A stretch of 64,000 nucleotides of DNA. It comes from an uncultured Erysipelotrichaceae bacterium (GTDB taxonomy: Bacteria > Bacillota_I > Bacilli_A > RFN20 > CAG-826). The notes beneath the pieces were generated by a model, which saw only the letters and a list, made by a program, of their open reading frames with translations, did no database searches and was not told the origin of the DNA. The stretch covers positions 232-64,231 of the forward strand of contig CADBUF010000012.1 in the NCBI GenBank assembly GCA_902797795.1, read 5' to 3'. The translations under genes were made by a program, and so were the position numbers. This document shows positions 12,482 through 58,863 of this stretch, piece after piece; position 1 is the first letter of the stretch; each line of letters starts with the position of its first letter.

Positions 12482-12485
12482 ACTA

Positions 12486-38020: not shown

Positions 38021-38028
38021 TGCACAAG

Positions 38029-38054
38029 AAAAGCGGGATTCCCGCTTTTTCTCT
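38029..38054 (+). terminator. rho-independent terminator after cls (possibly bidirectional)
   Basis: AAGCGGGAttCCCGCTT hairpin followed by TTTTTCTCTT. Confidence 0.7.
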
Positions 38055-38971
38055 TATTCCTTCTTGTTTTGTTCTTCAAGTTCCTTGATTTGTTTTTCAA
38101 GTCGCTCAATATCTCTTTGTTCTCTTTTCTTGTTCATTTCGTTATAGAAGTTAACGATGAAGGAAGTGAATACCGCGACAACGGCGATGCCACTTATTCC
38201 CAAGAAAACTGATAGAATTCTTCCAAAAGTAGTAACTACATATACATCACCAAAACCAATCGTGGTGATAACCGCAAATGAATACCACAAAGAATCAACA
38301 TAACTCACAATATTTGGTTCCACTAAAGTGAAATATAAGGAACATAAAATAACAAGGATAGATAGAGTTAAGATAATCTCATTAATAAGTGACTTTTTAA
38401 TGATGTTACTAATGACATTGAATTTTAATATGTTTTGATAAGGGAAGAGCAAATTCTTACCACTAGAAACAATGATCATCGAAGAAAAACATAGAACGAT
38501 AAAATTAGAATTACTAACTGAGGTAGCGTGTTTACCATAGATTTCTGGGAAAAAGAACACAAAAGAGAAGAGGAACGCTAAAGTGATACATAAACAGTTG
38601 AATATGATTGATTGTAAAGAACGATCTTCTCTTATCTTAAGTAAACGATAAACAACGATTGTTAAAGAATATAAGAACATCGAAGTAATAAGGAAATATA
38701 TGCTATATTTAGTAAGTGAGACTAAGACAGCAAGAACAAAAATAAAGGCGGTTAAGAAAATGTTTTCAAACATGTTCTTTTTAAAATTTGAAAGGTGTAA
38801 ACCAACGCGATTAATACCTAAACATACTAAGGCAATTGATAATGTGTAAAGACCAACGTAACTATCCTCCACTGAAAAAGCAACTGTGGCTATACAAAAA
38901 CCAATCGCGATTATTCCACTAATTAAGCCAAATATGTAGTAAGGGTTTTTTCTGTTTCCAACTTTTTCCAT
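38054..38971 (-). CDS. potassium-channel-like membrane protein (paralog B)
   Basis: 305 aa. WYSFAVITTIGFGD filter, same architecture as 31797-32720. Charged coiled-coil-like C-tail (EQRDIERLEKQIKELEEQNKKE). Confidence 0.65.
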   Translation of the reverse strand: MEKVGNRKNPYYIFGLISGIIAIGFCIATVAFSVEDSYVGLYTLSIALVCLGINRVGLHLSNFKKNMFENIFLTAFIFVLAVLVSLTKYSIYFLITSMFLYSLTIVVYRLLKIREDRSLQSIIFNCLCITLAFLFSFVFFFPEIYGKHATSVSNSNFIVLCFSSMIIVSSGKNLLFPYQNILKFNVISNIIKKSLINEIILTLSILVILCSLYFTLVEPNIVSYVDSLWYSFAVITTIGFGDVYVVTTFGRILSVFLGISGIAVVAVFTSFIVNFYNEMNKKREQRDIERLEKQIKELEEQNKKE

Positions 38972-39050: not shown

Positions 39051-41162
39051 TTACATTTTAATAATAAGGATATTTTTGTTATTAGAGTAATAATAATCAA
39101 TAGCCTTACTAATGTTACGAATAATAGAGATACCTAATCCTCCAACAATCCCTTCTTCAACGTTTTCTTGAACGGTTCTATTTTTCATTTTCAAAGGATT
39201 GAATGGGTGAGAATTATCAATAAAGATTAAGGTAATATCATCTTTTTTCTTTTCTACTTGGATAGTAATCTTTTTATTTGTTTTAGCCTTGCCGTAGGAG
39301 ATGATATTATTCAAAGCATCATCGATGATAACTCCAATTTTACTAACGACATCAACTGGTGACTCACTTAAATATTCACCAACTTGATTTGTGACTTTTT
39401 CAATATCGTCATAACAAGGATTTTCAATTTCAATATTTAAGATCTCTGGTCTAATTTTTAAAGAGAGAATTGTAATATCATCAAATTGTTCTTCCTTACC
39501 TCTAAATTTAGTAATGTCATCAATCGTATTATCGATTTTTTCTTTGATTTCTTTGTCATTATTCAAATCATCAAAAATTCTTTGATAACCATATTCTTCT
39601 TTTTTCTCATTAATCGCTTCATTTAATCCATCGGTGTGTAAGAATATTTCATCATTTTTATCAAGTTGGATAGATTCTTGTTCATAAATGAAATCTTCTT
39701 CTAAACCTAAAACAAAGTTAGAGTTAACTTTTAATTGTTGAAGTTTGCCTTTGTGTTTTACAAACGGACGTTCATGACCAGCGTTTACAAATTCAAATTT
39801 ATAAGTTTTCACATTAAGTACACCTAAGAAGACAGTGACAAAATATCCTTCTTTATTATTGATGCACAAACTGTTATTAACTTTGTTAAGTACTTCAGAT
39901 AAGCTTCTTTCAATGTGACATGCGGCTTTAATTTTTTCTTTCGCTCGCATCATAAATAAGCTAGCAGGAATACCTTTACCAGAGACATCAGCGATAACGA
40001 CCGCTAAGTGGTCTTTATCAACGAAGAAATAATCATAGAAATCCCCACCTACTACTTTAGCAGGAAGAATGAGGGTTCTAACTTCAATGTTATGTTCAAA
40101 ATATGTTGTGTCTGGTAAAGAATCCAATTGAATCTTACTAGCGATTTCTACTTCCGTATTAAATTGTTGCTCTTTAGCTTTAGCCTTTTTGATATTATCA
40201 ACATATTCAATGATTTGGTGTTGCATCTCATTAAATTCATTAGATAAGTCTCTAACTTCATCATTAGATTTGATGTTACTATTAATAACTTCTAAAGGTT
40301 CATCATTTTTCATCTTCTCAACGAAAGAAGTTGTCGCTTTTGATAATTTGCGGAAATTCTTAATAAGGAAAAATTTCGTAAATAAAGCATATATAACAAC
40401 TAGAACAATCGCTGCTCCAATAGTGATTAATAATTCAGTGGTTAATTGTTGATTGAATGTTTTATTAAATTCATATAGAGGATATTGAGTAACGATATAG
40501 CAACGGTATTTACTATCATCAACCCCCTCGGTGTAATATTTTAAGTAGGCATAAGAAGCATAATCATCCGCATATTTAGTGCTTGCTTGATTAGATGAAA
40601 GGAAAGATAATTCCGTATTATTAGTGACCCGATACGCTAATCCAACCACCCCGTAATTACCAGTAAGAGGGATACTACCTTCGACTAAATCGATGATCTT
40701 TCCTCTAAGAGCGTCATAAACAAACATTCGACTATTAACTGAAGTATAACGTTCGCTCACAGATTGAATGCTCGTAATAATTGAACCATAAAAGTTATTT
40801 CTAGCAGCCTGAATAAAAGATAAGCCCATTCCGCTGGTGCTACCAAATAAAGAAATTCGAGTATCTCCTTGATATTTAGCTAATTCAGTAGGGTCTAATT
40901 GCTCATAAGTATCCGCGACTGTTTCATATCTACTAATGAGCTCTTCAATAATCGATTGAAAGCCGTTATTTGGATCTGGAATAACTCTTACAACATCGTT
41001 AATAGAATTAGTGACTTGCTCACAAGTATTTGTGTAATTGTTTTTAGTGTTTTTATGGGAAATTAATAAGTTTACAGTTAGACTTGTGGTCACAATTAAA
41101 ATCGTCAACCCACCGGTTAACAAAATAATCTTACCAAGTAAACCAAGTCTAATTTTTTTCAT
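39051..41162 (-). CDS. membrane sensor with extracytoplasmic domain, HAMP linker, PP2C/SpoIIE-type Ser phosphatase domain and C-terminal RsbW-like HATPase_c_2 Ser-kinase domain
   Basis: 703 aa. TM1 (aa about 10-33), about 210-aa extracellular region, TM2 (LLITIGAAIVLVVIYALFTKFFLI), HAMP-like helices. PP2C motifs VGGDFYDYFF...ADVSGKGIPASLFM...HTDGLNEA. RsbW-like N/G boxes (IIDDALNNIISYG, IFIDNSHPFNP, GGLGISII). Confidence 0.75.
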   Translation of the reverse strand: MKKIRLGLLGKIILLTGGLTILIVTTSLTVNLLISHKNTKNNYTNTCEQVTNSINDVVRVIPDPNNGFQSIIEELISRYETVADTYEQLDPTELAKYQGDTRISLFGSTSGMGLSFIQAARNNFYGSIITSIQSVSERYTSVNSRMFVYDALRGKIIDLVEGSIPLTGNYGVVGLAYRVTNNTELSFLSSNQASTKYADDYASYAYLKYYTEGVDDSKYRCYIVTQYPLYEFNKTFNQQLTTELLITIGAAIVLVVIYALFTKFFLIKNFRKLSKATTSFVEKMKNDEPLEVINSNIKSNDEVRDLSNEFNEMQHQIIEYVDNIKKAKAKEQQFNTEVEIASKIQLDSLPDTTYFEHNIEVRTLILPAKVVGGDFYDYFFVDKDHLAVVIADVSGKGIPASLFMMRAKEKIKAACHIERSLSEVLNKVNNSLCINNKEGYFVTVFLGVLNVKTYKFEFVNAGHERPFVKHKGKLQQLKVNSNFVLGLEEDFIYEQESIQLDKNDEIFLHTDGLNEAINEKKEEYGYQRIFDDLNNDKEIKEKIDNTIDDITKFRGKEEQFDDITILSLKIRPEILNIEIENPCYDDIEKVTNQVGEYLSESPVDVVSKIGVIIDDALNNIISYGKAKTNKKITIQVEKKKDDITLIFIDNSHPFNPLKMKNRTVQENVEEGIVGGLGISIIRNISKAIDYYYSNNKNILIIKM

Positions 41163-41165
41163 TAT

Positions 41166-41465
41166 CTATTCCACTGTTAAGAATTTATCAAAACCAGTGA
41201 CGGAGAAAATTTCTTTAATGACGTCGTTACAGTTTTTAATCACTAATTTCTTATTAGTGGCTTGTGCGTCTTTTTTAAAGGCGATTAATAGTCTTAATCC
41301 AGCAGAAGAGATGTATTCGAGTTTTGCAAAATCCAAAACAACATCTAAATCATTTCTTTCTTCATGAGGAACTTTTTCAGTTAATTCTTGGGAAGTAACG
41401 GTGTCTAATCTTCCTTCTAAGGCGATTGTGATAACACCTTTTTCTTTAGTTGTTTTAATAGTCAT
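41166..41465 (-). CDS. STAS-domain anti-sigma-factor antagonist (SpoIIAA/RsbV-like)
   Basis: 99 aa. ITIALEGRLDTVTSQEL...LDFAKLEYISSAGLRLL with conserved phosphorylatable Ser in the YISSAGL motif. Confidence 0.8.
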   Translation of the reverse strand: MTIKTTKEKGVITIALEGRLDTVTSQELTEKVPHEERNDLDVVLDFAKLEYISSAGLRLLIAFKKDAQATNKKLVIKNCNDVIKEIFSVTGFDKFLTVE

Positions 41466-41467
41466 AA

Positions 41468-43234
41468 TTACGCTCCTTGTAAATTAATTTCTAAATATGT
41501 ATTGTTGGTATTTAACACTCTTGTGTAAGACATGTTAGATATCACTTTTCTCACTAATAATATACCACTAGTGGAGAATTCATGTTCATCTTCTTTATAT
41601 TGGGTTGGATCGAAGATGATTCCATCATCTCTAATAGAGAGTAACATTTTATCATTACTTATTCTTAAGGTGACGTCGATATAATAACGATGATTTTTAA
41701 AGCGATAACCATATTGGATGATATTAGCCACCATTTCTTCAGCGCCAATAGAAATCATCGTCGCATCTCTTTTATTCGCCCCATGTTTTAAGGCATATTC
41801 TTTTACTTCCATTGATAATTCTTCAACTTCATTGATGTCGTTAGTAATCGTGACATCATATTTATCTTGAATTTCAATATTAGGAATCATTAATAATCCT
41901 TCGGAAGTAGTTTTCTTCTTCTTGTTATAAATATAAATAAAGATATAAGTGATAAAGACAGTTCCTAATTCTGTTGCCGCTTGAGACACACAATATCCCT
42001 TTAAACCATAAGAGAATAATAGGCCTAAAGTTAAAGGAATAACTAAAATTAATTCTCGACATAATACAGTGACATAGGCAGGAACATTTTTAGTAATAGT
42101 CGGGTAATACATTTGATTGTATTTAGAAATCTCATAAGGAATAAAAGCAGCGAGATAAATCCAAATACATGTAAAGGTAAGACCGCTATTAGAGGTATAT
42201 TCACTAAATCCAAAGACTGTGCAATAAACTCCAGGGAAGATGGCAATAAGAGCGGTTAAAAAGACAGTTACCGCTAAATTAATAATGAAGATTTTTTTCG
42301 CTATTTTTCTTAAGGCGTAATAATCTCTTTCCCCATAAAGCACCCCACAAATATTTGGAATGGTTTGGATAATTCCACCTGCAAATAAATCAAAGACAAA
42401 GACCATGTTGGCAAGAATTCCAAAGATCATAATCTCAAAATTATCTTCAATTACTTTTGAAACATAGATCGAACAAATCGACATCTGTATCGCCGTTAAA
42501 AACATATTAAGGGCAAGCGAACTACTAGCCTTCAATGAATCAATCAAGCACTCCTTAGATGAGTCAAATTTAAAGGTCAATGAAAGCATACGTTTTTTGC
42601 TCTTAATATAGAAAAATACGAGCAAAATGCCGACAAAATATCCAAAACCGGTAGATAAAGCCGCTCCATACATCCCCATATCGCACCACTTAATAAAGGC
42701 GTATTCGGAACCAATTTTAAAGATATTAGCGACGATATACATCGCTGAAGCAAGACGTGGATTATTGTCTGCGCCAATGAAAGATCCTAAAAGTAAAGCA
42801 AGGGTGATAATTGGATCAGTGAGCATGAAGATAAGAATATATTGTCTAGCGTATTCAACGATATCGTTTGGGCAGAATAATTTCGCTAATGGTTCAGCAG
42901 TTAAATAGGCTAGTCCAGCAAATAAAAGAGAAAAAGCCATACCAATAATTAAACATAACGAGAATGTTGTTTTGGATTTAGAGACATTCCGTTTGCCTAA
43001 ATAATTAGCCACTACAATAGCACCACCCGTACCGATAGCAAATCCAGGCAATTGAATGATATATAAAATCGGTAAAACAAGAGAGGAAGCACTTAAAGCG
43101 TCATTACCAATGAAGTTACCAACAAAGATACCATCCACAAGCGAGCCAAATTGCATCGCAAAAATCATGAACATTGAAGGAAGAAGATATTGGATAAGTT
43201 TTTTATCCATCAATTTAGAATTACGAGCAAGCAT
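41468..43234 (-). CDS. MATE-family transporter fused to C-terminal RsbW/SpoIIAB-like HATPase_c_2 (anti-sigma-factor-type Ser kinase) domain
   Basis: 588 aa. N-terminal about 440 aa 12-TM MATE hallmark (LLPSMFMIFAMQFGSLVDGIFVGNFIGNDALSASSLVLPI...GTGGAIVVANYLGKRN). C-terminal about 140 aa with kinase N-box EMVANIIQYG, G1 IRDDGIIFDP, G2 STSGILLV. Confidence 0.65.
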   Translation of the reverse strand: MLARNSKLMDKKLIQYLLPSMFMIFAMQFGSLVDGIFVGNFIGNDALSASSLVLPILYIIQLPGFAIGTGGAIVVANYLGKRNVSKSKTTFSLCLIIGMAFSLLFAGLAYLTAEPLAKLFCPNDIVEYARQYILIFMLTDPIITLALLLGSFIGADNNPRLASAMYIVANIFKIGSEYAFIKWCDMGMYGAALSTGFGYFVGILLVFFYIKSKKRMLSLTFKFDSSKECLIDSLKASSSLALNMFLTAIQMSICSIYVSKVIEDNFEIMIFGILANMVFVFDLFAGGIIQTIPNICGVLYGERDYYALRKIAKKIFIINLAVTVFLTALIAIFPGVYCTVFGFSEYTSNSGLTFTCIWIYLAAFIPYEISKYNQMYYPTITKNVPAYVTVLCRELILVIPLTLGLLFSYGLKGYCVSQAATELGTVFITYIFIYIYNKKKKTTSEGLLMIPNIEIQDKYDVTITNDINEVEELSMEVKEYALKHGANKRDATMISIGAEEMVANIIQYGYRFKNHRYYIDVTLRISNDKMLLSIRDDGIIFDPTQYKEDEHEFSTSGILLVRKVISNMSYTRVLNTNNTYLEINLQGA

Positions 43235-43236
43235 AA

Positions 43237-46200
43237 TTAATCGTCCCTTTCAAAGTAATCTAAGGAAATCAAAGACTTAATAGCCTTAGTTAAATATTCT
43301 TGGTCAGTAATTGGCCATTTATAGCCTAAGCGGTAAAGCGCTTTAATCGAAAATGAATTATCGGTAAGGATATAAGAGTGAGAATGATTATCACTACTTG
43401 TATAAGTAATTAAAGCAGACACTTTCTTGCTCTTAACGTCATCATTTGTAGCTTTAATAACCTCATCCATAAATTCTTTATCCCCAACTTTTTCAATCTT
43501 TAAGCCACAGTCATTCATTGCTTCAATCACATCACCCATTTCTACAGGATGAGAATTTGCACTATGGAAGACGGTGAATTCTTTTGGAGCGGTCGCTAAA
43601 ACGAGAATGCTCTTAGCGACTTCATCAATTGGAGAGAAGTCGGTCGTTTCATCCAAAGAAGAGATTGGGAATTTTCCTAAAGCGTAATAACCTCGTAGAG
43701 ATCGCATAAATCCGTTAGTAATAGAGTTAATTTGGAATTCTCCATCGCTTTGACGTGACATCAAATTACCGACACGAACAATCTTTCCATCTAATCCATC
43801 TTTATTAATTGCCTCTAACATCGCTGCTTCCGCCATAAACTTAGAATGGATATATTTGTTAGAAATATCTTGTCCGATGTCTAATTGGTTTTCTTTCATA
43901 CGGAAGTTTTCAGCGAACTTATGGTCAATATTTTCGCCCGCAACTGATAAAGTGGAGATTTGAATCATTCTCGCATTATGCTTTAAAGCGATTCCAATGA
44001 GGTTTTTCACCCCTCCAACATTAATTTTTTCAATGATATCATCATTTGAGAAATGTTTAACAATCGCTGCTGAATTAATAAGTGTGTCAAATTTGATATC
44101 TTTGAGTTTATCGGTTAAGTTCTCGTCTGCAATATCTCCATCAACGATATGAATAAAGCTATCAAGTTCTTCAGTAAATGGAGAATCGAAATAATATTCA
44201 AGTAATAGAGAAAGTCTACTATGTAAGGAGATTTGTTTACTTCTTACTAACACATATGTTTCTATGTGCTGATCAATTAATTCTTTAAGAATATGAATTC
44301 CTAAAAAGCCAGTCGCACCAGTTAAAAGGACAACACCTAAATCTCTTTCTTTATGAATATCATCAACATATTCAATCGTGTTTTTATTAAGCGCTGCATA
44401 TTTATTATCCTTAGATTCTTCTACTGCTTTTTCTTCTTCCACCACCTCTTCATCTTTATTAATTAATGAAGCAAGTTCAAGGGCAGTAGAATGTTCAAAA
44501 ACATCTTTATAGGCAATTGGTAAGCCCTCTTTAAGAGCGAGCATTGCAACTTTTGAAGCGCTTAAAGAAGTACCACCTAATTCAAAGAAATCTTCATCGA
44601 TTCCGATATCTTGTTTTCCAAGGGCTTTAGCAAAGATTTCACAAATCGTTTTTTCAGTTTTGTTTCTAGGTGCTTTCTTTTCTTTATTAGAGGAAGTAGA
44701 AACAATTTCTGGTAATGATTTCTTATCAATCTTGCCATTAGGAGTAAGAGGGATACGATCAAGTTGCATCATTGCTTTAGGAATCATATATGGGGTAAGT
44801 GATTTTGCCATATATGAAGTTAAAGTTTCTTTATCTAAAGGTTTTGACGCGGTGTAATAAAGCGCTAAATAGTCGCCATCAACATCATTATTTTTCACTA
44901 AAATGACGCATCTAGTGACGTCTGGATGAGAATTACAAACGTTTTCAATCTCATCTAATTCAATTCTTAATCCATGTAATTTTATTTGGTTATCAAGACG
45001 TCCAAAGAATTCGGTGTTACCTTCATTATTCATTCTAGCAAGGTCACCACTTCGATAGGCTCTTTTACCGTTTAAATCAATAAATGAGGCTTTGGTTTTT
45101 TCTTCAAGTTTATAATAGCCAATACCAACACTATCACCGGCAATAGTTAAATCACCAATCGCATTAATTGGTAAAATATGACCAGCCTTATCCAAGATGT
45201 AATAGCTAGTGTTAGCAACAGGTTTACCAATAGTGACATATTTATCAGTAATAAAGGTCATTGATGAAGTAATCGTTGTTTCTGTTGGACCATAACCATT
45301 ATCAATCAGGCAATCAATGCCATGTTTTCTTATACGATCCACTAATTCATAAGGAACAGCCTCTGCTCCCATATCAAGCACTTTGAAGTTCTTTAATGCT
45401 TCAACAAATTCTAGAGTATCTAAAACGTTAGAAACGTATGAAGGAGTTAAGAACATAATGTTAACTCCATATTTCTTTAATGTTTGTGATAATAAAAGTG
45501 GGTTTTCAATCTCTTCTTCACTAGCGATCACTGCTTGATAACCATGAGAGAGAATGACACATTCTTCTTGTAAAGAAGCATCAAAAGCAAAAGAAGCAAA
45601 CGAGCAGCTAGACACTTTGTCTTTAATAATGCGATATTCGTTAGTGGCTAAATTAGCGCCATCTAAGACATAATTTGATAAATTCTTATGACTAATCATC
45701 ACCCCTTTAGGTTTACCAGTGCTACCAGAGGTATAGATGATGTAACATAGTGAATCTAGTGGGATACCAATATTTAAATTGCTTGTCTTATTAGATTTCA
45801 AAATGTCTTCAATTAAAAGAACTTTAATCTTTGTCTTTTTAATGAGGTCATGTTTTTCTTTTTCAATATCTTTAGTGGTTATTAAAATCTTCGCGTCACT
45901 ATCGGTGATGATATATTCAATACGATCATCAGGATATTTAGGATCAATAGCGACAAAGGCTCCACCCGATTTAAGAATACCTTCTCTAACGAAATAAGCA
46001 CTTACTCTTCTAGGCATGAGCATGATTACTCTTTCACCAAGAGCGACTTTATCTTCAGACAAAGCATGAGCGACTTTATTCGCGTTTTCGTTAAATTGTT
46101 TATATGTATATTCTCCATCAACACCCGCTAAAGCGAGTCTATTTGGATATTTCTCCACTATTTCTTCTACGATCTTAGGGTAGGCTTTATTTGAAGGTTT

Positions 46201-49200
46201 AACATATGTTTGGTTAAATTCTTCATATAACTTTTTATCAACTTCTGGTAAGCAGTTAATTTCACTGATGTGTTTTTTAGATGTCACTTCCAGTAACGCC
46301 AATTCAAATAATCTAGCAAATGATTCAATCGTATTCTTGTTATACATTGATTCATCATATTCAAAATGAAGTTTGAATTTATTATCTTCGATGAAAACAT
46401 CTAAAGAGAATAGTGATTTCGCATCATCTGAATCCAATATCACACTTTCAGCTTTCTTATTACCGATTTCATTAAATTCAAATAAGTCTCCTTGATAAGC
46501 AAACATCACATCACTAGTGATATTAAAGGCTGAGGCTATTTCTTGGAAAGAATAGATGTCGTTTATTTGTGAAGACTCTAATTGTTTCTTCATCTCTTCT
46601 AGTAGAGATAACACTTCATCATTTTCTTGATATTTAACATAAACTGGTAAAGTTTTTACCATCATCGAAACAGTGTTCATGTTCTTAGATGAATTTCTCC
46701 CATTATAGATAGTGACAAACAAAGCATCCTGCTTATAAATAAATTTAGAGAAGGTAAAACCAAATACGAAGTTAGTGATCGCATTTAGGGTTAAATTGTT
46801 CTTACTAGCGAATTCTTTAATCGCTTTGACATCAATATTAGAATAGATATCTTCAACATGTAATTTAGCGACTTCTTCAGTCTTTAAATCTTTCTTCATG
46901 AGATATCCATCTTCGACATCTTTCAATAAAGTAGCGTAATATTCTTTCGCATTTTCATAGGCTTTTGAATTACGTTTATCGTTCTCTTCTAAAGCAAGTT
47001 CATAGCCAGTGAAGGTTTCTTTTTCAAGCTTTTCACCAGAATAAGCTTTATTAATATCATTTAAAAGGATATTTTCACTAGTGCCATCACAGATAAGATG
47101 ATGAACATCTAAGAAGAGGTAATTATTATCTTTACATTCATAGATTTCAACACGATATAAAGGACCACCAACGATTTCAAAAGGTCTAACCAAAGATTTT
47201 TGATCGAGCTTATTAGCTTTAATAATTTCAACTTTTGGTTCAGCTTCTTTTCTTATAGCCTTGATGTTCCCATCATCGTCCATCTTCAAAGTTGTTAAAA
47301 GATATTCATGAGCCTTTAAGGCCTTAATCACACTTTCATTAAGTTTATTGATATCGATAGACTTATCAATTTTAAATAATAAAGGAATGTTATAATTTGT
47401 ACTTCCAACTTTAGCGATTGATTCAATAAAGATACCTTCTTGAGTCTTGGTTAATGGGTATTCACTTAATAAATCATAAGTCTTGTTTTCATCTTGTTCT
47501 TCCATCAAAGAAGCGAGTTCTTTAATGTTAGGGTGCTCGTTTAAATCTTGAGAAGAGATCTCTTTATTAAATGCTTTAGATAATCTCACAGTTAAAGTGA
47601 TAGAAGAAATAGAGGTAATACCAGCCTCATATATATCAGTAGTCACTCCAAAAGAATCATGACCTAAAATCTCTTTTATAATATCAAAGATCTTTTGTTC
47701 ATTTTCAGTGCTAGGTTTAACGACATCCTCCACTTTCAATTCAGGAACTGGTAAAGCTTTTTTATTCACTTTTTGGTTTTGATTAAGTGGAATTGCATCT
47801 ATTTGCATAATATATGGGGGGACCATATAAGGTGGCTTTTTACTTTTAATGAAAGCTTTTAAGTCATCAACGTCAATCTTTTTATCACTGACGATATAAC
47901 CCACGATATATTTAACTCCAGCGGGGTCCGCAAAATCTTTAACAGTCGCGTCTTTAATGTCTGGATATTGTCTAATAACTTGTTCGACTTCACTTAATTC
48001 CACACGGAAGCCACGTATTTTCACTTGGAAGTCTTTTCTTCCAATAAAATCGATATCTCCATTTGGAAGGAATCTTACGATATCACCAGTCTTATAAAGT
48101 TTTTTAAATCGAGGATCATCATCGAAAGGATTAATCAAGAAGGCCTTTTTATTTTCTTCGTCTCTATTTAGATATCCACGAGACACTTGAGGACCAGAAA
48201 TATATAACTCACCTTTAGCAAGATATGGTAATCTCTTTTTATTTTCGTCTAATACATAGAATTTATAATCGCTTAAAGCGTGACCAATTGGGATACGATG
48301 ATAAAGTTTATCAACATGATATCCGGAACAATATATTGTTCCTTCTGTTGGTCCATATAAATTGAATAGCTTATAGTTTTTAGGTGGGTCAAGAGGGACT
48401 AACTTTTCTCCTCCTACAGAAATAGTTCTAATCGTTTCAAATGTTAATTCACTCACTAATTGTCGACCTACTTGAGTAGTAAAGAAGGCATCAGTAATTT
48501 TATTTTCATTTAAATATTTATTTAGTCCAATGAGATCTAATCGCATCTCTTCAGGAATGATATAAATAGTTCCCCCGACCACGATAGTTGGATATAAATC
48601 AAGCATATCAGCGTCAAATCCATATGAAGCATAGGCACTCACTCTCGCGTCATGTTGGAGATTTCTAAAATTAATATCAACATTACAAACTGACATGATG
48701 TTTTGGTGTTCTAACATTACTCCTTTAGGAACACCAGTGGAGCCAGAAGTATATAACATGATAAAAAGGTTTTCAGGTCTAGGTCTATTTGTAGGTCGAG
48801 ATTCATCTTTCAATTTATCAAATTCATCAAGATAAATAACTGGGCCTTTATATTCATCGAGTAAATCAATATATTGTCTTTCGGCGATAACAACTTTACT
48901 AGATGCATCCTTAACCATGAAGTTAAGTCTTTCTTTAGGATAAGAAACATCTAATGGTTGATAGGCTGCACAAGATTTAATAACTCCTAAAGAGGCAATA
49001 ACAATATATTCACTTTTCGAAATAAGGATTGAAACTTTGTCTTCCTCTTTAACACCAAGTCTAATCAATTCATTAGCGATTCTATTTGAATAGAGGTCAA
49101 CTTCCTTATAGGTGTAACTCTTATCTTTATAGACCACTAAGGTTTTATTGGGCTCCTTATTAAGCCAATAATCAAATTTATCAAGAATTGTTTTTCCCTG

Positions 49201-50472
49201 TTCAAGTTGACTCATATCAACATGATTAAAGTCATCTAAAATCTTGATTTGTTTTTCATCTAAAAGTTCAATTTCTTCAAGTTTTAATGGTGATTTGAGC
49301 AGTTTTTTAAGAATTATGTCATATAAATCAATGATTTGATTAATCGAGTCATCACTATATAAATCACTTCTAAATTCAAACCAAATATAGAACTTATTTC
49401 TATCTCTATGGATCTCAATAGACATGATTCCTTTTCCATCTTTTTCTTCGATTTGTTTAGCCACTACTTCTTTGTCGTTGAATGTTGTTTTAAACATATA
49501 ATCACCTTGATAGGCAAATAAGATTTCAGGAGAGACACCTAAATTTGTAACAACTTGAGAGAAGGAATATAAATCATGTTTAACATTATTAATCAATTCG
49601 TCATTAACCTTATTAAACATTTCTTTGGAAGTTTTGATATTTTCTAAATTGAGATAAAGAGGGAATGTCCTTACAAACATACCAAAAGTATTTTCTAATG
49701 TTTCATCTCTACCATTATGAATGGAAGCAATTATTACTTCTTTGTCCATGTTCACTTTTGAAAGGAGGAACATAAAACAAGAGATAAAATAGCTTGATGT
49801 TTTAATTCCTTGCTTATGAGTAAATTCACGAACCTCACTAGCGTCAACTTTTAATTCTTTTTTAATCGTATGATGACTAATTTCTTCTTTTTTATAGTCC
49901 TCGACTATTGTACTTTCAGTGTCGATTCCACCATAGTTGTCTTTATAATATTTTTCAGCTTCTTTAAATTCCTTGGATTTTAGAAGTTTTTGTTCGCGCT
50001 TACAGTAGGAGAAGACATCTTCTTTTTCAGAAGGTATTTTCTTTCCTTTATATAAAGCATCTAAGGAATCAATGAATAATTTAATTGTGTTACCATCAGC
50101 GATGATGTGATGGAAATCAAAAAATAGATAATATTCTTTATTAACTTTTAAAAGCTCAAAACGATATAAGTGATGGTTAAATAGATCAAATTCCTTCACC
50201 AACCCTTTTTCATTAATCTTTTTTAATTCTTTAAGAGGGACTTTGATATCTTCTACATGACATTCTTTGTAGAAGTTTCCTTCATCATCTTTTTTAATGA
50301 TCGTAAATATCCCTTGATGGACTTTACTAAACTCATTAATAGCGGCCTCTATTTTCTTGGCGTCAACATCTTCTCCTAAAGGTAATAAAGAAGGGAGGTT
50401 ATATTTAGTTGTCGGTTTTAAACATTCAAACAAAATCCCTAATTCAGATTGCGATAAAAGATACTTTTCCAT
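43237..50472 (-). CDS. dimodular non-ribosomal peptide synthetase, C-A-T-C-A-T-R (terminal thioester reductase)
   Basis: 2411 aa. C1 HHIIADG (aa 121-127). A1 cores LYTSGSTGVPKGV / NLYGPTEG / YKTGDIVRF...GRKDFQVKIRGFRVEL with FDAD (Asp235). T1 GITSIS. C2 HHLICDG. A2 YTSGSTGKPKGV / NGYGPTET / YRSGDLARM...GRLDNQIKLHGLRIEL with FDAS. T2 LGGTSLSA. R domain Rossmann VVLLTGATGFLGIHIL. Confidence 0.95.
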   Translation of the reverse strand: MEKYLLSQSELGILFECLKPTTKYNLPSLLPLGEDVDAKKIEAAINEFSKVHQGIFTIIKKDDEGNFYKECHVEDIKVPLKELKKINEKGLVKEFDLFNHHLYRFELLKVNKEYYLFFDFHHIIADGNTIKLFIDSLDALYKGKKIPSEKEDVFSYCKREQKLLKSKEFKEAEKYYKDNYGGIDTESTIVEDYKKEEISHHTIKKELKVDASEVREFTHKQGIKTSSYFISCFMFLLSKVNMDKEVIIASIHNGRDETLENTFGMFVRTFPLYLNLENIKTSKEMFNKVNDELINNVKHDLYSFSQVVTNLGVSPEILFAYQGDYMFKTTFNDKEVVAKQIEEKDGKGIMSIEIHRDRNKFYIWFEFRSDLYSDDSINQIIDLYDIILKKLLKSPLKLEEIELLDEKQIKILDDFNHVDMSQLEQGKTILDKFDYWLNKEPNKTLVVYKDKSYTYKEVDLYSNRIANELIRLGVKEEDKVSILISKSEYIVIASLGVIKSCAAYQPLDVSYPKERLNFMVKDASSKVVIAERQYIDLLDEYKGPVIYLDEFDKLKDESRPTNRPRPENLFIMLYTSGSTGVPKGVMLEHQNIMSVCNVDINFRNLQHDARVSAYASYGFDADMLDLYPTIVVGGTIYIIPEEMRLDLIGLNKYLNENKITDAFFTTQVGRQLVSELTFETIRTISVGGEKLVPLDPPKNYKLFNLYGPTEGTIYCSGYHVDKLYHRIPIGHALSDYKFYVLDENKKRLPYLAKGELYISGPQVSRGYLNRDEENKKAFLINPFDDDPRFKKLYKTGDIVRFLPNGDIDFIGRKDFQVKIRGFRVELSEVEQVIRQYPDIKDATVKDFADPAGVKYIVGYIVSDKKIDVDDLKAFIKSKKPPYMVPPYIMQIDAIPLNQNQKVNKKALPVPELKVEDVVKPSTENEQKIFDIIKEILGHDSFGVTTDIYEAGITSISSITLTVRLSKAFNKEISSQDLNEHPNIKELASLMEEQDENKTYDLLSEYPLTKTQEGIFIESIAKVGSTNYNIPLLFKIDKSIDINKLNESVIKALKAHEYLLTTLKMDDDGNIKAIRKEAEPKVEIIKANKLDQKSLVRPFEIVGGPLYRVEIYECKDNNYLFLDVHHLICDGTSENILLNDINKAYSGEKLEKETFTGYELALEENDKRNSKAYENAKEYYATLLKDVEDGYLMKKDLKTEEVAKLHVEDIYSNIDVKAIKEFASKNNLTLNAITNFVFGFTFSKFIYKQDALFVTIYNGRNSSKNMNTVSMMVKTLPVYVKYQENDEVLSLLEEMKKQLESSQINDIYSFQEIASAFNITSDVMFAYQGDLFEFNEIGNKKAESVILDSDDAKSLFSLDVFIEDNKFKLHFEYDESMYNKNTIESFARLFELALLEVTSKKHISEINCLPEVDKKLYEEFNQTYVKPSNKAYPKIVEEIVEKYPNRLALAGVDGEYTYKQFNENANKVAHALSEDKVALGERVIMLMPRRVSAYFVREGILKSGGAFVAIDPKYPDDRIEYIITDSDAKILITTKDIEKEKHDLIKKTKIKVLLIEDILKSNKTSNLNIGIPLDSLCYIIYTSGSTGKPKGVMISHKNLSNYVLDGANLATNEYRIIKDKVSSCSFASFAFDASLQEECVILSHGYQAVIASEEEIENPLLLSQTLKKYGVNIMFLTPSYVSNVLDTLEFVEALKNFKVLDMGAEAVPYELVDRIRKHGIDCLIDNGYGPTETTITSSMTFITDKYVTIGKPVANTSYYILDKAGHILPINAIGDLTIAGDSVGIGYYKLEEKTKASFIDLNGKRAYRSGDLARMNNEGNTEFFGRLDNQIKLHGLRIELDEIENVCNSHPDVTRCVILVKNNDVDGDYLALYYTASKPLDKETLTSYMAKSLTPYMIPKAMMQLDRIPLTPNGKIDKKSLPEIVSTSSNKEKKAPRNKTEKTICEIFAKALGKQDIGIDEDFFELGGTSLSASKVAMLALKEGLPIAYKDVFEHSTALELASLINKDEEVVEEEKAVEESKDNKYAALNKNTIEYVDDIHKERDLGVVLLTGATGFLGIHILKELIDQHIETYVLVRSKQISLHSRLSLLLEYYFDSPFTEELDSFIHIVDGDIADENLTDKLKDIKFDTLINSAAIVKHFSNDDIIEKINVGGVKNLIGIALKHNARMIQISTLSVAGENIDHKFAENFRMKENQLDIGQDISNKYIHSKFMAEAAMLEAINKDGLDGKIVRVGNLMSRQSDGEFQINSITNGFMRSLRGYYALGKFPISSLDETTDFSPIDEVAKSILVLATAPKEFTVFHSANSHPVEMGDVIEAMNDCGLKIEKVGDKEFMDEVIKATNDDVKSKKVSALITYTSSDNHSHSYILTDNSFSIKALYRLGYKWPITDQEYLTKAIKSLISLDYFERDD

Positions 50473-50477
50473 AATTG

Positions 50478-51092
50478 TTATTCCTCCAAAGAATTGATTT
50501 TCTTAATATTTATATTAAATGGTTTTTCCTCTTTTAAAGTAAGAGATAACGAATAGCCATCATATATCATCGATTTAGTGTAACCACCATATCTATTTCC
50601 TTCTAAAGGAAGGCCCTTTATTTTTCTTATATCCATAAGCGAATTAGAGAAACATTTAATAAGGCTTTCTTTATTAGACCAAAGAAGGAATAAATCATTG
50701 ATATCATTAATTTCTTTTTCTTCATCCACTAATGAATATTTAATCGCCCCAATTTTGCTTTGATCAATGCGTTCAATATCCACTCCAACATCTCTATCTA
50801 TAGAGACAGCAAGAACAACATATTCCCCTGAATGTGACAAATTAAAATATGGTCCATTTTCCATATAAGGCTTACCATTATCGGTAAATTTAATCTCTTT
50901 ATGTGGAAGAAATTTATATAGTAAATACCCTCCACCCAAGGAGAGAATTTGATCCTTTTTTTGAACGAACCTATTAGCTTTTTCAATTCGACTTTTATCA
51001 ATATGAGAAACAATAAAAGAATAATTGTCGTTTACAAAAGAAGTATGAAGAATATAGACATTAATTTCATTCATTAAAAAATATTCTAACAC
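50478..51092 (-). CDS. Sfp-type 4'-phosphopantetheinyl transferase
   Basis: 204 aa. VGVDIERI and WSNKESLIKC (W..KE...K) motifs. 5-nt gap to the NRPS start. Confidence 0.8.
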   Translation of the reverse strand: MLEYFLMNEINVYILHTSFVNDNYSFIVSHIDKSRIEKANRFVQKKDQILSLGGGYLLYKFLPHKEIKFTDNGKPYMENGPYFNLSHSGEYVVLAVSIDRDVGVDIERIDQSKIGAIKYSLVDEEKEINDINDLFLLWSNKESLIKCFSNSLMDIRKIKGLPLEGNRYGGYTKSMIYDGYSLSLTLKEEKPFNINIKKINSLEE

Positions 51093-51149
51093 ACCTATGT
51101 ATTACGCGTTAATAATTTCCGTTCAATAAATTGAAAGAGGATTATATAA

Positions 51150-51929
51150 CTAATATTTTCCGAAAAGAAGAACCGCTACGACGAGAATTTGGCTTTTTGA
51201 CAATGAATCAGTGATTTCATATTTTATTGATAAGTCATAAAGAGTGATATAGTTACCACTAATAGAGGCATAAAAACCACCAAAAATTTTATTGATGTTA
51301 CTACCACTCAATTCATAAAGATAGCCACCGAAAGCGTTTTTAATTTGATTGCCTCTAATTTCAAAAACTGGTCCATATCCTTCTTGATTAACCATATCAT
51401 TTTCAATACGGTAATATGTATTTGTTCGCATATCTAAAATACGGCTACCATCAATTCTTAATATCGGTCCATAACCAACTTGTTTAACATATATAGTGGA
51501 AATAGAAGAATAACGGTAAGAGGTTCTTTCATCTCTTTCTGCTTTATAAAAATATTCATTATTTTTCTCTATTTCAATCTCACTTTTTTCATTAAAAGAA
51601 GAGGTTTCTTTCGCGTCTTTATTCTCTTCTATATCTTTTTCTTCTTTAAATTCGCTTGGTATTGGAGCGTTTATTTTGTTCTTATTTGACACATATTGGA
51701 TAGTAAAAAAGACTAGAAAAACAAGTAAGGCAATAATTCCGATAATGAGCAAAATTAAACCAGAAATAAATAGACCTTCGCCTTTTTTAAAATTGTAAAT
51801 TAAAGAAGACGCTCCATAGGCGGTTCCAATAATTCCAAACACCGCAATTGTCCAAAGAAAATATCGTCTTCTCATAACTAATAAAAGTTTATCATAAGTA
51901 ATACTTATTCTATATATAAAATGTAACAC
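51150..51929 (-). CDS. membrane-anchored hypothetical protein with C-terminal Gly/aromatic-rich tandem repeats
   Basis: 259 aa. N-terminal TM segments. C-terminal imperfect about 14-22 aa repeats (YGPILRIDGSRILD / YGPVFEIRGNQIKNAFGGYLYELSGSNINKIFGGFYASISGNYI). No known motif recognised. Confidence 0.35.
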   Translation of the reverse strand: MLHFIYRISITYDKLLLVMRRRYFLWTIAVFGIIGTAYGASSLIYNFKKGEGLFISGLILLIIGIIALLVFLVFFTIQYVSNKNKINAPIPSEFKEEKDIEENKDAKETSSFNEKSEIEIEKNNEYFYKAERDERTSYRYSSISTIYVKQVGYGPILRIDGSRILDMRTNTYYRIENDMVNQEGYGPVFEIRGNQIKNAFGGYLYELSGSNINKIFGGFYASISGNYITLYDLSIKYEITDSLSKSQILVVAVLLFGKY

Positions 51930-52028
51930 CGCTTTTATAAAAAGACAGTAGATGAATTAGTGGACTACATCGATAAAATGATTGCTATGATCATTAATAT
52001 TTAAAATATCGGAAAAAATAATTATACC

Positions 52029-52931
52029 TTAAATTAATCCCGCTAAAGTATTTAACGCCATCCCTATAGAAACAAGGATAATGATTAATAATAACTGGAG
52101 TTTATTTTTGCTTTTAAAGAATAATACTGTACCTAAAGAAACGATGATGAAATCTAATCCAACAATCACATTAACAATCGCAGGAATCGAATTAGAATAA
52201 GAGAAGGCTCTATATTTTGCCACTACTGTTAAAGCGTTAAATACCGCTCCTAAGAAGATAAATAAATGACCCTTCCAATTAATAGTTACCACTTCTTTTA
52301 TTGATTTAGTGAAAATAGAAGATAAAAGCATCGCTATAAATAAGATGAAGGTTTGATGAAAAGAAATAACGTCAGATGGTAAATCACTTAACTTTAATTT
52401 GACGATTAATAAAACAAAGGCAAAAGCAATAACAGACACGAGAGCAAATATCACCCAATGTGCCTTCGCTTTAGAATTGATCTTTTTATTAAAAACAATA
52501 TAGATAAGGGCCGCTAATAAAAGGGCTAAACCAATAAAATATAAAGCGATATTTGCTGGTTTACCACCACCAGTAACAAGTGAAAAAGTAAAGATTATAA
52601 ATAAAGAGTTAGCGAAAAACAAAGTTCCCGCACTACAAAATGGTGAGAAAGCTTCTAAATGAGACCTTTTAATAGCGAGGAAATAAAATAACCAGTTTAT
52701 CGCCATTAAAATTCCAACCAAAGAAATCCAAAGCCACTGTTCTAGTGACAAGTTATATAAAGTTGGAACGTGGCCAAGAGCTAAACATATAAAGAAACAA
52801 GCAATAACCATAAAAAATGATTTAAGAGCTGCATTTGTTATGGCCGAAGCTTTATTCGCGCCCAATTTATTAAAAATAGTGTTGCCACTAGAGGCAAGCA
52901 AAGCTAGAAAAGCAAATAAAATATATTCCAC
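52029..52931 (-). CDS. DMT-superfamily (EamA-like) transporter
   Basis: 300 aa, about 10 TM. Two-half internal symmetry typical of EamA. Confidence 0.45.
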   Translation of the reverse strand: MEYILFAFLALLASSGNTIFNKLGANKASAITNAALKSFFMVIACFFICLALGHVPTLYNLSLEQWLWISLVGILMAINWLFYFLAIKRSHLEAFSPFCSAGTLFFANSLFIIFTFSLVTGGGKPANIALYFIGLALLLAALIYIVFNKKINSKAKAHWVIFALVSVIAFAFVLLIVKLKLSDLPSDVISFHQTFILFIAMLLSSIFTKSIKEVVTINWKGHLFIFLGAVFNALTVVAKYRAFSYSNSIPAIVNVIVGLDFIIVSLGTVLFFKSKNKLQLLLIIILVSIGMALNTLAGLI

Positions 52932-53022
52932 GATTAATAGGATACTCTTTTTTATAAAAAGGCGATAGAAAAAGGACTCTTTAATAACCTATTTTGAATA
53001 AGAGGTTAATAGGAGTAAATCG

Positions 53023-54501
53023 TTATTGCTCTTCGTTTTTCTCTACGTTATCTTCATTTAACGATTCAACATCTTTTTCAATTTTCTTTTTTGAAAGGAA
53101 TTGCCACAAAAAGAAGGCCGCTCCTAAAACAATCCAAACCGCAAAGATGATGTAAGACGGAATAGAGAAGTTAACTCCTAGTCCACCAATAGGAACTAGT
53201 TGGATAACAATAAAGACAATCGAAAAAGCTAACCCTGACAGGGTTATGATTTTCATAAAGATGCTTCCATCTTTTTCTTTTTTCATTGTGATGAAAGCCG
53301 CTAAACAGGTAAATCCAAAGCCAATAGAAGTACCAATCGAAGCCATATCCACAAACCAGCTTAAGGCGTTTCTTCCTAAAAATGGTCCGACCAAAGAAAT
53401 GATTAAACAGAATAAAATAGCAAATTGTGGGACGCTATGTTTTTTATCAACTGTGCCAAATCTTTTTGGTAGATATCCTTCTCTTCCCATAGAGAATATT
53501 AGTCTACTAGAGGCCATATAAAAGCCCATGATACCCGATAAAATAGCGCTTAATACAGCTACCGCTAAAATGATTGTTCCAGGGATCTTTCCTAAGATTT
53601 GTTGAGCAGCATATAATAGTGGCCAACTACCACCGCTAGCGATGTATTCTGGCCATTTTTCAATCACTAAGGCAGTAATCGTATTATTAGCAACATAGAC
53701 AAATGTTCCAAACAAAATAGCGATCACCATGATAAAGATAACTTTTTTAAAGCTGAATTTAAATTCTTCCGCAGCTTGAGGAATTGTTTCAAAACCAACG
53801 AATGCCCAAGGGGCAATTGCTAAAGTCGCAAATATTGATGAAGTAATTCCGATGCCACCTAATTTAGGATCATCAGGCAATTTGAAATATCCCCAAATGT
53901 TACCCATATTGCTCCATTTAGTAAGTGGAGAGGCTAAAGCGGCTATAACTAAAACAATAACCGTCGAACCTAATAACACCGCTAGAATGGTTTGTACAAT
54001 CCCAGCCTTTTTAGTTCCTAACATATTAATGACAGCGAAAAGTATTAACACTCCACACGCTAATAAGATTTCACCTAAATAAATTGTTTTCCCGGCTATT
54101 TCATAAGAAAAGCCAAAATGTAATGATCCTGGAGCAATGCCATCCACCACAAGCCCTAAGGCTGTTGAATTAAGTGGGACATTAGATAAATAAGCAGCAA
54201 TTAAAAACCAACCACATATATAAGCAGGAATTCTACCAAAACATTGCTTAGCAAAAATAAATTCTCCGCCTGCTTTTGGATGTTTTTTAATCATATAGGC
54301 ATAGCTAAAGGAGATAATTATCATAATTATTGCTCCTATTGCTATAGCAATTGCAGTACCTAAAACACCAGAATTAGGAAGGAACTTTTCTCCAGGATTG
54401 ATGAAAGCTCCCCAACCGATGATACAACCAAACGCAATGGCCCATACGTCCATTGGGTTAAGTTTCTTTTTAAATTGTTGCTGTCCTTCTGGTTTATTCA
54501 T
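53023..54501 (-). CDS. APC-family amino acid permease
   Basis: 492 aa, 12-13 TM. APC-type N-terminal region (WAIAFGCIIGWGAF), acidic C-tail. Confidence 0.7.
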   Translation of the reverse strand: MNKPEGQQQFKKKLNPMDVWAIAFGCIIGWGAFINPGEKFLPNSGVLGTAIAIAIGAIIMIIISFSYAYMIKKHPKAGGEFIFAKQCFGRIPAYICGWFLIAAYLSNVPLNSTALGLVVDGIAPGSLHFGFSYEIAGKTIYLGEILLACGVLILFAVINMLGTKKAGIVQTILAVLLGSTVIVLVIAALASPLTKWSNMGNIWGYFKLPDDPKLGGIGITSSIFATLAIAPWAFVGFETIPQAAEEFKFSFKKVIFIMVIAILFGTFVYVANNTITALVIEKWPEYIASGGSWPLLYAAQQILGKIPGTIILAVAVLSAILSGIMGFYMASSRLIFSMGREGYLPKRFGTVDKKHSVPQFAILFCLIISLVGPFLGRNALSWFVDMASIGTSIGFGFTCLAAFITMKKEKDGSIFMKIITLSGLAFSIVFIVIQLVPIGGLGVNFSIPSYIIFAVWIVLGAAFFLWQFLSKKKIEKDVESLNEDNVEKNEEQ

Positions 54502-55765: not shown

Positions 55766-55767
55766 AA

Positions 55768-58862: not shown

Positions 58863-58863
58863 A

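Follow-up and report, generated by a model that had tools for sequence, protein, structure and literature searches.

We studied a gene for a nonribosomal peptide synthetase (NRPS) in a 64,000-nucleotide stretch of DNA (the window) from an uncultured Erysipelotrichaceae bacterium (contig CADBUF010000012.1 of assembly GCA_902797795.1). The NRPS is the second gene of a nearly gap-free five-gene operon on the minus strand (39051-51092; Table 1). The other four genes encode a 4'-phosphopantetheinyl transferase (PPTase), a MATE efflux protein that ends in an RsbW-like domain, a protein of the STAS type, and a sensor in the membrane that has PP2C and RsbW-like domains. On balance, we think it fairly probable that an intact dimodular NRPS within a regulated operon makes an N-acyl dipeptide aldehyde that is exported. 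As an enzyme, and as far as its sequence goes, the NRPS is not unusual, and its family is already known from gut and rumen anaerobes. What is new relative to the literature is that the cassette is defined as a unit of five genes, that two of its proteins are fusions to RsbW-like domains, and that the specificity code for the residue that would carry the aldehyde (P1) is invariant. The original prediction for this gene, which was made from the DNA without database searches, missed both the downstream exporter and partner-switching genes and the invariant code of module 2.

The NRPS gene is a single open reading frame (ORF) with an ATG start. According to Pfam, the protein contains two Condensation domains, two AMP-binding domains (each with AMP-binding_C), two PP-binding domains, and one NAD_binding_4 domain (amino acids [aa] 2050-2289), with E-values that range from 1e-139 to 1e-23. 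Given such scores and a 7.2-kb ORF in DNA of 33% GC, a chance origin is ruled out. The GC content of the region (0.31-0.35) is the same as in the remaining window. The original prediction did not give the strand, which is minus, but it had read the domain order as C-A-T-C-A-T-R (condensation, adenylation, and carrier domains, twice, and then a reductase), and both the order of the Pfam domains and the positions of the motifs bear this out. Each motif that it named was found: two HHxxxDG motifs, the equivalents of Asp235 in the adenylation domains (FDAD at 619 in A1 and FDAS at 1630 in A2), two carrier-protein serines, and TGxxGxxG.

These features indicate that the enzyme is intact. Both A domains have the A3, A5, A7, A8, and A10 core motifs, and there is no sign of a pseudogene. 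As predicted, the terminal domain is a thioester reductase and neither a thioesterase nor an epimerase: it matches NAD_binding_4 and has TGATGFLG at aa 2051 and YIHSK at aa 2207, and Thr2174, Tyr2207, and Lys2211 form the Thr/Tyr/Lys triad of the short-chain dehydrogenases/reductases. When 12 homologues with identities as low as 44% are aligned, the second His of both C domains, the Ser of both carrier domains, the Lys of both A10 motifs, and all three residues of the reductase triad are invariant, as are G951, T953, and S954 of T1. We also considered that the terminal domain might be an R* domain (a Dieckmann cyclase) or that the NRPS might be undergoing pseudogenisation. We rejected both readings, since the domain retains the Tyr and Lys of its active site.

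Table 1. Genes of the operon and domains of the NRPS. Coordinates are positions in the window; the end coordinate of the NRPS takes in the stop codon.
Feature	Coordinates	Strand	Evidence
Sfp-type 4'-phosphopantetheinyl transferase, 204 aa from GTG start	50478..51092	minus	Pfam AASDHPPT_N 3.6e-9, ACPS 1.1e-6
NRPS C1-A1-T1-C2-A2-T2-R, 2411 aa	43237..50472	minus	Pfam domains and core motifs
C1, N-terminal condensation domain, aa ~4-420	49213..50463	minus	HHIIADG at aa 121
A1, adenylation domain, aa ~430-915	47728..49185	minus	motifs; code DALFSGLIYK
T1, carrier domain, aa 926-988, Ser954	47509..47697	minus	Pfam PP-binding; GITS
C2, condensation domain, aa 1004-1413	46234..47463	minus	HHLICDG at aa 1124
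A2, adenylation domain, aa 1436-1914	44731..46167	minus	motifs; code DAQFDGGITK
T2, carrier domain, aa ~1940-2005, Ser1969	44458..44655	minus	GGTS
R, thioester reductase domain, aa 2048-2411	43237..44331	minus	NAD_binding_4 1.8e-33; TGATGFLG, Thr2174, Tyr2207, Lys2211
MATE efflux protein with C-terminal RsbW/SpoIIAB-like HATPase_c_2 domain, 588 aa	41468..43234	minus	Pfam MatE and HATPase_c_2
Single-domain STAS protein, 99 aa, Ser53 equivalent to phospho-acceptor	41166..41465	minus	Pfam STAS 2.7e-16
Membrane sensor, 703 aa: first transmembrane segment, sCache-like ectodomain (predicted), second transmembrane segment, coiled-coil linker, PP2C, RsbW-like HATPase_c_2	39051..41162	minus	

The genes of the operon are very close together: 5 nucleotides separate the stop codon of the PPTase gene from the start of the NRPS gene, and the remaining gaps are 2 nucleotides (NRPS to MATE), 2 nucleotides (MATE to STAS), and 3 nucleotides (STAS to sensor). 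The original prediction had mentioned an adjacent PPTase, and its Pfam matches confirm that it is of the Sfp type; the motifs GVDIE and WSNKESLIK are also visible. Its match in NCBIfam is AusB-like and weak (47.7 bits versus a cut-off of 225). The GTG at 51092 that is listed as the start of this gene overlaps a promoter-like -10 element (TAGAAT, 51088-51083), and translation may instead begin at 51074, where there is an in-frame ATG. The candidate promoter (51112..51083) carries little weight because our promoter scan found fewer sites (47) than in shuffled sequence (mean of 74).

To describe the family, we searched a large protein collection with the NRPS (E <= 1e-50), which returned 418 proteins; more than 400 homologues of full length are known in this way, nearly all of them from rumen genomes assembled from metagenomes. 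Nearly all of the top 111 are about 2400-2450 aa long with an identical set of Pfam domains. By identity, the homologues fall into a single 100% match from public databases (P0001), a group at 77-86%, a large group at 53-59% (labelled as Acholeplasmatales, Erysipelotrichaceae, or Bacilli), and a group at 43-51% (labelled as Lachnospiraceae, Ruminococcus, or Clostridia). Longer homologues of about 3000 aa are found at 34-40% identity. A scan of genomes, with one genome per species, gave 78 NRPS loci (L001 and so on). Almost all of these are from metagenome-assembled genomes (MAGs) from the rumen (cattle, sheep, goat, deer, yak, and buffalo), and the two closest have NRPSs that are 81% identical (Bacilli bacterium RGIG4434) and 79% identical (L001). 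The window's STAS protein is present on 13 contigs, including contigs from cattle-rumen metagenomes (PRJEB21624); an exact-match look-up of the NRPS (P0001) gave no contig. Together, the loci and these contigs bear out the expectation that the host is a gut-type anaerobic Firmicute, here from the rumen. Scans of the window for rRNA, tRNA, and Rfam families gave no match.

We compared the ORFs from all 78 loci with the proteins of the window. The NRPS, the MATE fusion, the STAS protein, and the PP2C fusion co-occur in 44 of the 78 loci, which span several phyla, and 22 loci have the exact five-gene order of the window. Most of the remaining loci are broken off by the ends of contigs. The PPTase has a homologue in 46 of the 78 loci. 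The same four components, in another order, lie beside the ~3000-aa NRPSs of Prevotella, Muribaculaceae, other Bacteroidales, and Eggerthellaceae. We also considered the genes upstream of the operon (51150-57147, which encode a 259-aa protein, an EamA protein, a permease, an M20 peptidase, and an amidohydrolase) as members of the cluster and rejected them, as each lies beside the NRPS in only 0 or 1 of the 78 loci.

The flanks of two of these cassettes contain additional genes. In L001 (6867-9316 and 21533-22378), a protein with PAD_porph (the agmatine/peptidyl-arginine deiminase family) and CBM56 and an extra STAS protein are encoded directly upstream of the PPTase, and an rve integrase is encoded just downstream of the cassette. 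In L030 (7268-9339 and 21566-26435), a His_kinase/response-regulator pair lies upstream, and a second STAS protein, a STAS domain fused to an APH-type kinase, a second protein with PP2C and HATPase_c_2, and a radical SAM/SPASM enzyme are encoded downstream, so partner-switching parts accumulate around this cassette.

Several known systems resemble the window's operon or parts of it. Reviews that cite Guo 2017 and Schneider & Balskus 2018 describe dipeptide aldehydes from gut bacteria, their stabilisation by an N-acyl tail, and ruminopeptin. The NRPSs of this family (Guo 2017; rup, for ruminopeptin, from Ruminococcus bromii) are likewise dimodular, have a terminal thioester reductase, may or may not have an N-terminal C domain, and are found in obligate anaerobes of the gut; their products are dipeptide aldehydes, some of them N-acylated, that inhibit proteases. 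The window differs in its host, which is from an uncultured rumen lineage (labelled as Bacilli, Erysipelotrichaceae, or Acholeplasmatales), and in the code of module 2, DAQFDGGITK, which is specific to the window's clade, whereas the Lachnospiraceae and Ruminococcus relatives carry other codes. Membership in this family, which we likened to the window's NRPS by description, is supported by the architecture, by the habitat, and by the intermediates at 43-51% identity in Ruminococcus and Lachnospiraceae MAGs. The original prediction had drawn the same analogy, which is reasonable; the R domain has the motifs of a competent reductase, and the host is a gut anaerobe. The cathepsins that it named as targets are carried over from studies of the human gut and would be candidates at most for this product.

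Another resemblance is to mru0068 from the archaeon Methanobrevibacter ruminantium, which encodes C-A-T-C-A-T and a terminal domain that is labelled as a thioester reductase in Figure S8 of the genome paper (Leahy 2010, PMC2812497). The gene is flanked by genes for a MatE protein, an anti-sigma factor antagonist, and Ser phosphatases (PMC2812497). The neighbourhood (MatE, STAS, and Ser phosphatase) is the same gene set as in the window, so the outline of the cassette has been known since 2010. The RsbW-like domains on the MatE protein and on the phosphatase, and the Cache ectodomain, are not reported for mru0068 in that paper. Leahy 2010 also remarks that the C domain of the first module implies N-acylation and reports that mru0068 aligns over its full length with Swol_1094 from Syntrophomonas wolfei (PMC2812497). 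The archaeon probably acquired its genes from bacteria. The other NRPS of note from this comparison is Mru_0351, which has four modules (the window's NRPS has two) and whose R domain is the closest solved structure to the window's R domain. Our literature search for the A2 code string, or for follow-up work on mru0068 or Swol_1094, found nothing beyond two genome papers, and a targeted search for the combination of genes in the cassette found only the 2010 paper to be relevant (PMC2812497) and no later open-access work.

The original prediction held that the specificity of the A domains could not be read reliably by hand, and it proposed that the codes of both be extracted. We did so by aligning each A domain to GrsA-PheA (as a check, the reference fragment reproduced the code DAWTIAAICK). 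This gave DALFSGLIYK for A1 and DAQFDGGITK for A2. The code of A2 is nearly fixed: 99 of 114 dimodular homologues from the databases have DAQFDGGITK and another 6 have DAQFDGGVTK, and among the genome homologues at 53-81% identity, about 30 of 35 have the identical code. The code of A1 takes 47 forms in the same 114 homologues, nearly all of them hydrophobic (for example, DAMFAGLVFK, DAMFMGLVFK, or DAMLFGAVFK), and the genome loci behave alike. In other clades, the A2 code is different; for example, it is DVQFYGGVFK in Lachnospiraceae and DMKNMGTVSK in Bacteroidales, and one Ruminococcus locus has a code that contains Lys. The fixed A2 code and the variable A1 code imply that the residue that would bear the aldehyde is the same throughout the clade and that the one next to it can differ. 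Such constancy of P1 would be expected if this residue determined a conserved target. In the A2 pocket, one acidic residue (Asp299) is accompanied by Gly at 301 and 322, Gln239, and Thr331, which weakly suggests a substrate with a long side chain that is either a hydrogen-bond donor or cationic.

Does the first condensation domain add a cap? In 44 of 44 homologues (42-81% identity), C1 retains the second His of its motif, which is the catalytic one; in 7 of these, the first His is replaced by F, Y, or Q. C1 is only 25% identical to C2. That C1 is of full length and that its catalytic His is always retained imply selection for activity. The ~3000-aa relatives have a different arrangement at their N terminus, A-T-C-A-T-C-A-T-R. 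Asp235 is missing from the first A domain of these proteins (its code reads, for instance, IATFKVIGGK or TDWFYGN..), so the extra A-T appears to load a starter that is not an amino acid, in cis. These NRPSs are about 2980-3050 aa long, come from Bacteroidales and Eggerthellaceae (L039, L040, L053, L059, L061, L062, L065, L066, L069, L072, L074, and L075), and mostly have DMKNMGTVSK, with Lys239, as the code of their last module. A starter module in cis would fit a family chemotype of N-capped products.

An N-acyl cap would remove the free amine that is needed to form a pyrazinone and would thus block this cyclisation. The original prediction had proposed both a pyrazinone-type product and N-acylation of the first residue, and these are mutually exclusive; the conservation of the C1 His favours the capped linear aldehyde. 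Given this conservation, the in-cis starters of the relatives, the remark in Leahy 2010, and the N-acyl precedents from the gut, we infer that the product is most likely an N-acyl dipeptide aldehyde from which no pyrazinone can form.

The third gene of the operon encodes what looks like a divergent member of the MATE family. It is above the cut-off for Pfam's MatE (90.1 bits versus 24.9) and we consider it divergent because it is below the cut-off for NCBIfam's TIGR00797 (88.6 bits versus 147.4). A crude hydropathy scan found about 10 hydrophobic segments (about 12 transmembrane segments are typical of the family). All 120 of its best homologues carry both PF01554 and PF13581. The C-terminal ~140 residues are conserved in 29 orthologues, with an invariant N box (EE..N) and an invariant G1 box (DDGxPFDP). 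The G2 box of this HATPase_c_2 domain is down to one Gly, and its ATP lid is about 10 aa shorter than in RsbW, and the domain looks non-catalytic from its motifs. A profile of the C-terminal domain matches RsbW (6M36) at 4e-7 and SpoIIAB at about 3e-5. The family profile was needed to reach these proteins, as searches of the PDB with the single sequences of both HATPase_c_2 domains returned only noise.

The STAS protein and the sensor look like the remaining parts of a partner switch. In 51 STAS orthologues from the cassettes, the motif is EY[IV][SA]S[AS]GLR, in which the second Ser (Ser53, in YISSAGL) is invariant; it aligns with the DSSGLG motif of SpoIIAA at what we take to be the phospho-acceptor position. 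The sensor has transmembrane segments at aa 6-24 and 244-262 (from a hydropathy scan), an ectodomain between them (aa ~25-243), a PP2C domain (aa 383-570; match to SpoIIE at 7.4e-43), and an RsbW-like HATPase_c_2 domain (aa 599-701). An AlphaFold model of the sensor, built with 40 homologues, has a mean predicted local distance difference test (pLDDT) score of 84.4 and shows an ectodomain made of helices and beta-sheet, then a linker that is long and helical, and then the PP2C and HATPase domains. The ectodomain modelled alone has a pLDDT of 89.4 and a predicted TM-score (pTM) of 0.81. Foldseek gave weak matches for the ectodomain (best E of 4.6e-3); these are to domains of the Cache type, one of them from the periplasmic part of RsbU from Chlamydia (6MAB). 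In the model, then, it is a Cache-like (sCache-like) fold. The structures that resemble it most have formate, urate, urea, and C4-dicarboxylates as their ligands. No part of the cassette evolves faster than the ectodomain: it is 14-41% identical among relatives, versus 48-67% for the whole sensor and 79-81% for the NRPS. In the sensor's HATPase_c_2 domain, the N box and the GGxG (G2) box are invariant, and the G1 box is DNGxxFDP in most lineages and DNSHPFNP in the window's clade (L001, L002, and the window itself, where the domain is at 39051-39458). We found no sigma factor gene within the cassette, nor in the DNA that flanks it in the window, L001, or L030.

Partner switching by bifunctional regulators is known from HsbR/HsbA in Pseudomonas, SypE/SypA in Vibrio fischeri, RsbU/V/W, and, with a periplasmic sensor domain, RsbU of Chlamydia. 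The window's proteins are alike in that the STAS protein has a conserved Ser that corresponds to the phosphorylated one and in that a single protein joins a PP2C domain to an RsbW-like kinase domain; like the sensor in the window, Chlamydia RsbU has an extracytoplasmic Cache-type domain. They differ in having no sigma factor or other known output nearby and in having a second RsbW-like domain, with a degenerate G2 box, on the MATE protein. We know of no characterised fusion of a MATE protein to an RsbW-like domain, and a targeted literature search gave only the 2010 genome paper as relevant.

These observations suggest the following pathway. The PPTase would prime T1 and T2. A1 would load a hydrophobic residue, with a code that differs among species, and C1 would cap the amine of this residue with an acyl group from acyl-CoA or from an acyl carrier protein. 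A2 would load the one fixed residue, C2 would form the peptide bond, and the R domain would release the N-acyl dipeptide as a C-terminal aldehyde by a two-electron reduction that depends on NAD(P)H. The MATE protein would then export the aldehyde. The product would be linear and electrophilic, and its most likely role would be to inhibit proteases that prefer this fixed residue at P1. The most speculative steps concern regulation: in response to a ligand outside the cell, the sCache sensor might set the phosphorylation of the STAS protein via its PP2C and kinase domains, and the unphosphorylated STAS protein might dock on the RsbW-like domain of the exporter, which would couple the outside signal to export or production.

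Several observations weigh against parts of this account. The matches of C1 in the PDB are weak and are to ordinary LCL-type C domains (the best is TycC, at 7.6e-17). An attempt to type C1 as a starter domain by orthology failed, since the C domain that comes after the additional A-T of the Bacteroidales relatives is closer to the window's C2 (31-37% identity) than to C1 (25-29%). To our knowledge, the A2 code fits no known textbook code, and the idea that its substrate is cationic is weakened by L035, in which Asp299 is paired with Arg239. The cassette is not obligatory, since three Lachnospiraceae loci have the NRPS and the PPTase without the regulators and another three loci have the STAS and PP2C proteins without the MATE gene. 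In the window's clade, the replacement of the Gly in the G1 box by Ser makes the sensor's kinase activity uncertain; judging from the motif, this clade may be the only one in which it has changed or disappeared. Finally, no sequence rule separates R domains that carry out two-electron reductions from those that carry out four-electron reductions (PMC8024701), and no product is reported for Mru_0351 (PMC8024701) or for mru0068 (PMC2812497).

The chemistry of the product could differ from our account in two ways. If C1 is unused or only partly used, then a free dipeptide aldehyde would cyclise spontaneously to a dihydropyrazinone, whose oxidation would give a pyrazinone; AusA and several gene clusters from the human gut are precedents, and this was the headline of the original prediction. 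AusA is the best match of the NRPS in NCBIfam, the R domains are homologous, reviews report that many dipeptide aldehydes from the gut were isolated as pyrazinones, and the cassette has no gene to activate an acyl group. Indeed, the AusA/AusB system of Staphylococcus aureus (aureusimine/phevalin) is likewise dimodular, with an aldehyde-releasing R domain and an adjacent Sfp-type PPTase. However, AusA has the order A-T-C-A-T-R and so lacks a C domain at its N terminus, it yields pyrazinones, and no genes for an exporter or for partner switching are known to accompany it. The match of the window's NRPS to the AusA equivalog model (NF047350) is 1118.9 bits, as against a cut-off of 2500, and its best stretch aligns aa 8-996 with model positions 1001-1996; the low score and the different architecture imply that the NRPS is not AusA. 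Because C1 is complete and its catalytic residue is retained throughout, and because the relatives with an in-cis starter point to capped products, we consider a pyrazinone unlikely. The other departure would be a four-electron reduction by the R domain, so that the product is an N-acyl dipeptide alcohol instead of an electrophilic inhibitor of proteases. Alcohols are made by the R domains of MxcG, MxaA, and Nrp of Mycobacterium tuberculosis (Mtb), which are from the same superfamily and are among the matches, and as mentioned above, sequence does not tell the two outcomes apart. Against this, the best solved relatives of the window's R domain are the carrier-reductase (PCP-R) structure of Mru_0351 (6VTJ, 1e-67) and then the aldehyde-releasing R domain of AusA (4F6C, 1.2e-40), which is the closest characterised relative and is far ahead of MxaA (1.5e-15) and Mtb-R (5e-5). 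The characterised gut relatives also yield aldehydes, according to reviews. An alcohol thus seems very unlikely to us.

The regulatory genes can also be read in other ways. The product might be chiefly a signal, with the sCache domain sensing either the molecule that the cell exports or its counterpart from a competitor, in an autoregulatory, quorum-like loop via the partner switch. A ligand-binding domain that faces outward is encoded in the operon of the exporter, and it evolves faster than the rest of the cassette, alongside the variable code of A1. Yet Cache domains bind many small metabolites, the ligands of the top structural neighbours being of this kind, and a reactive aldehyde would be an odd choice for a diffusible signal; we doubt that signalling is its main role. 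Alternatively, the RsbW-like domain of the exporter might be a membrane-tethered anti-sigma factor, with the sigma factor encoded elsewhere and transcription controlled in the classical manner. The domain is homologous to RsbW and SpoIIAB, both of which bind sigma factors, and the STAS and PP2C partners are present. No sigma factor gene is found near the cassette in the window or in L001 and L030, though, and the presence of the transporter fusion in all of the best homologues suggests a functional link to transport, so we regard control through a sigma factor as improbable.

Short peptides with an N-terminal cap and a C-terminal aldehyde, such as leupeptin and the flavopeptins, are known inhibitors, and their P1 residue sets which proteases are inhibited. 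In gammaproteobacteria, leupeptin is made by discrete ligases, unlike the product of the window's NRPS. If our account of the NRPS is combined with the most specific reading of its neighbours, then a sigma-free partner switch, with the transporter itself as its output, would gate the export by MATE of a reactive aldehyde with a long polar or cationic P1 residue, that is, a leupeptin-like inhibitor of Arg- or Lys-specific proteases from rumen microbes; P1 would be the same in more than 100 rumen lineages, and the one Asp and two Gly of the A2 pocket would leave space for such a residue. We view this joint reading as a long shot.

Other parts of the window contain several features that are separate from the operon. 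Two regions (568-15641 and 53023-57147) hold a gene set that resembles anaerobic degradation of purines or uric acid: a PALP enzyme, two xanthine-dehydrogenase-like molybdenum cofactor (MoCo) enzymes with FAD subunits, a DHO_dh+Fer4 protein, two amidohydrolases, and a carbamate-kinase-like AA_kinase, along with the permease, M20 peptidase, and further amidohydrolase just upstream of the NRPS operon. Between these and the operon, the 259-aa protein (51150-51929, minus strand) has one transmembrane segment, a repeated GYGP[IV]x[RE]I[DR]G motif, and a weak, sub-threshold match to the mycoplasma MAG0920 family; it is beside the NRPS in 0 of the 78 related loci. Farther upstream, the minus strand at 57630-63197 encodes a 1027-aa protein with Metallophos and an nSTAND3 NTPase and, next to it, an AAA_14 protein as well as one of 364 aa that matches nothing in Pfam; this looks like a defence-type locus.

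On the other side of the operon, an Ion_trans_2 channel gene (38054-38971, minus strand) follows the sensor gene; it has its own promoter-like site and is not conserved beside other cassettes. A strong hairpin (38028-38050), with an A-run before it and a T-run after it, lies between this gene and a convergent PLD/cardiolipin-synthase-like gene (36497-38020, plus strand) and is probably bidirectional. Elsewhere (20697-22130, minus strand), a protein with DUF6937 and DUF6938 (E of 1e-109 and 1e-84) adjoins a melibiase/GH31-like enzyme and an MFS_2 sugar transporter, and it may be an uncharacterised partner in the use of glycosides.

Among the biosynthetic gene clusters of rumen genomes, those for NRPSs outnumber every other class (5,346 of 14,814 in one survey, which included no product chemistry; PMC8241843), and so far as we searched, we found no identified product of a rumen NRPS cluster in the literature. 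The locus described here belongs to a very widespread family from the rumen, and our analysis gives a defined five-gene unit and a testable signalling circuit that is linked to an exporter. The aldehyde residue that we predict to be the same across the clade, next to a residue that varies, would imply a single class of conserved target. If the products are protease inhibitors, then they would have a bearing on the breakdown of protein in the rumen and on competition among microbes. And if the RsbW-like domain that is fused to the exporter is the output of the switch, then this would be a new use of partner switching.

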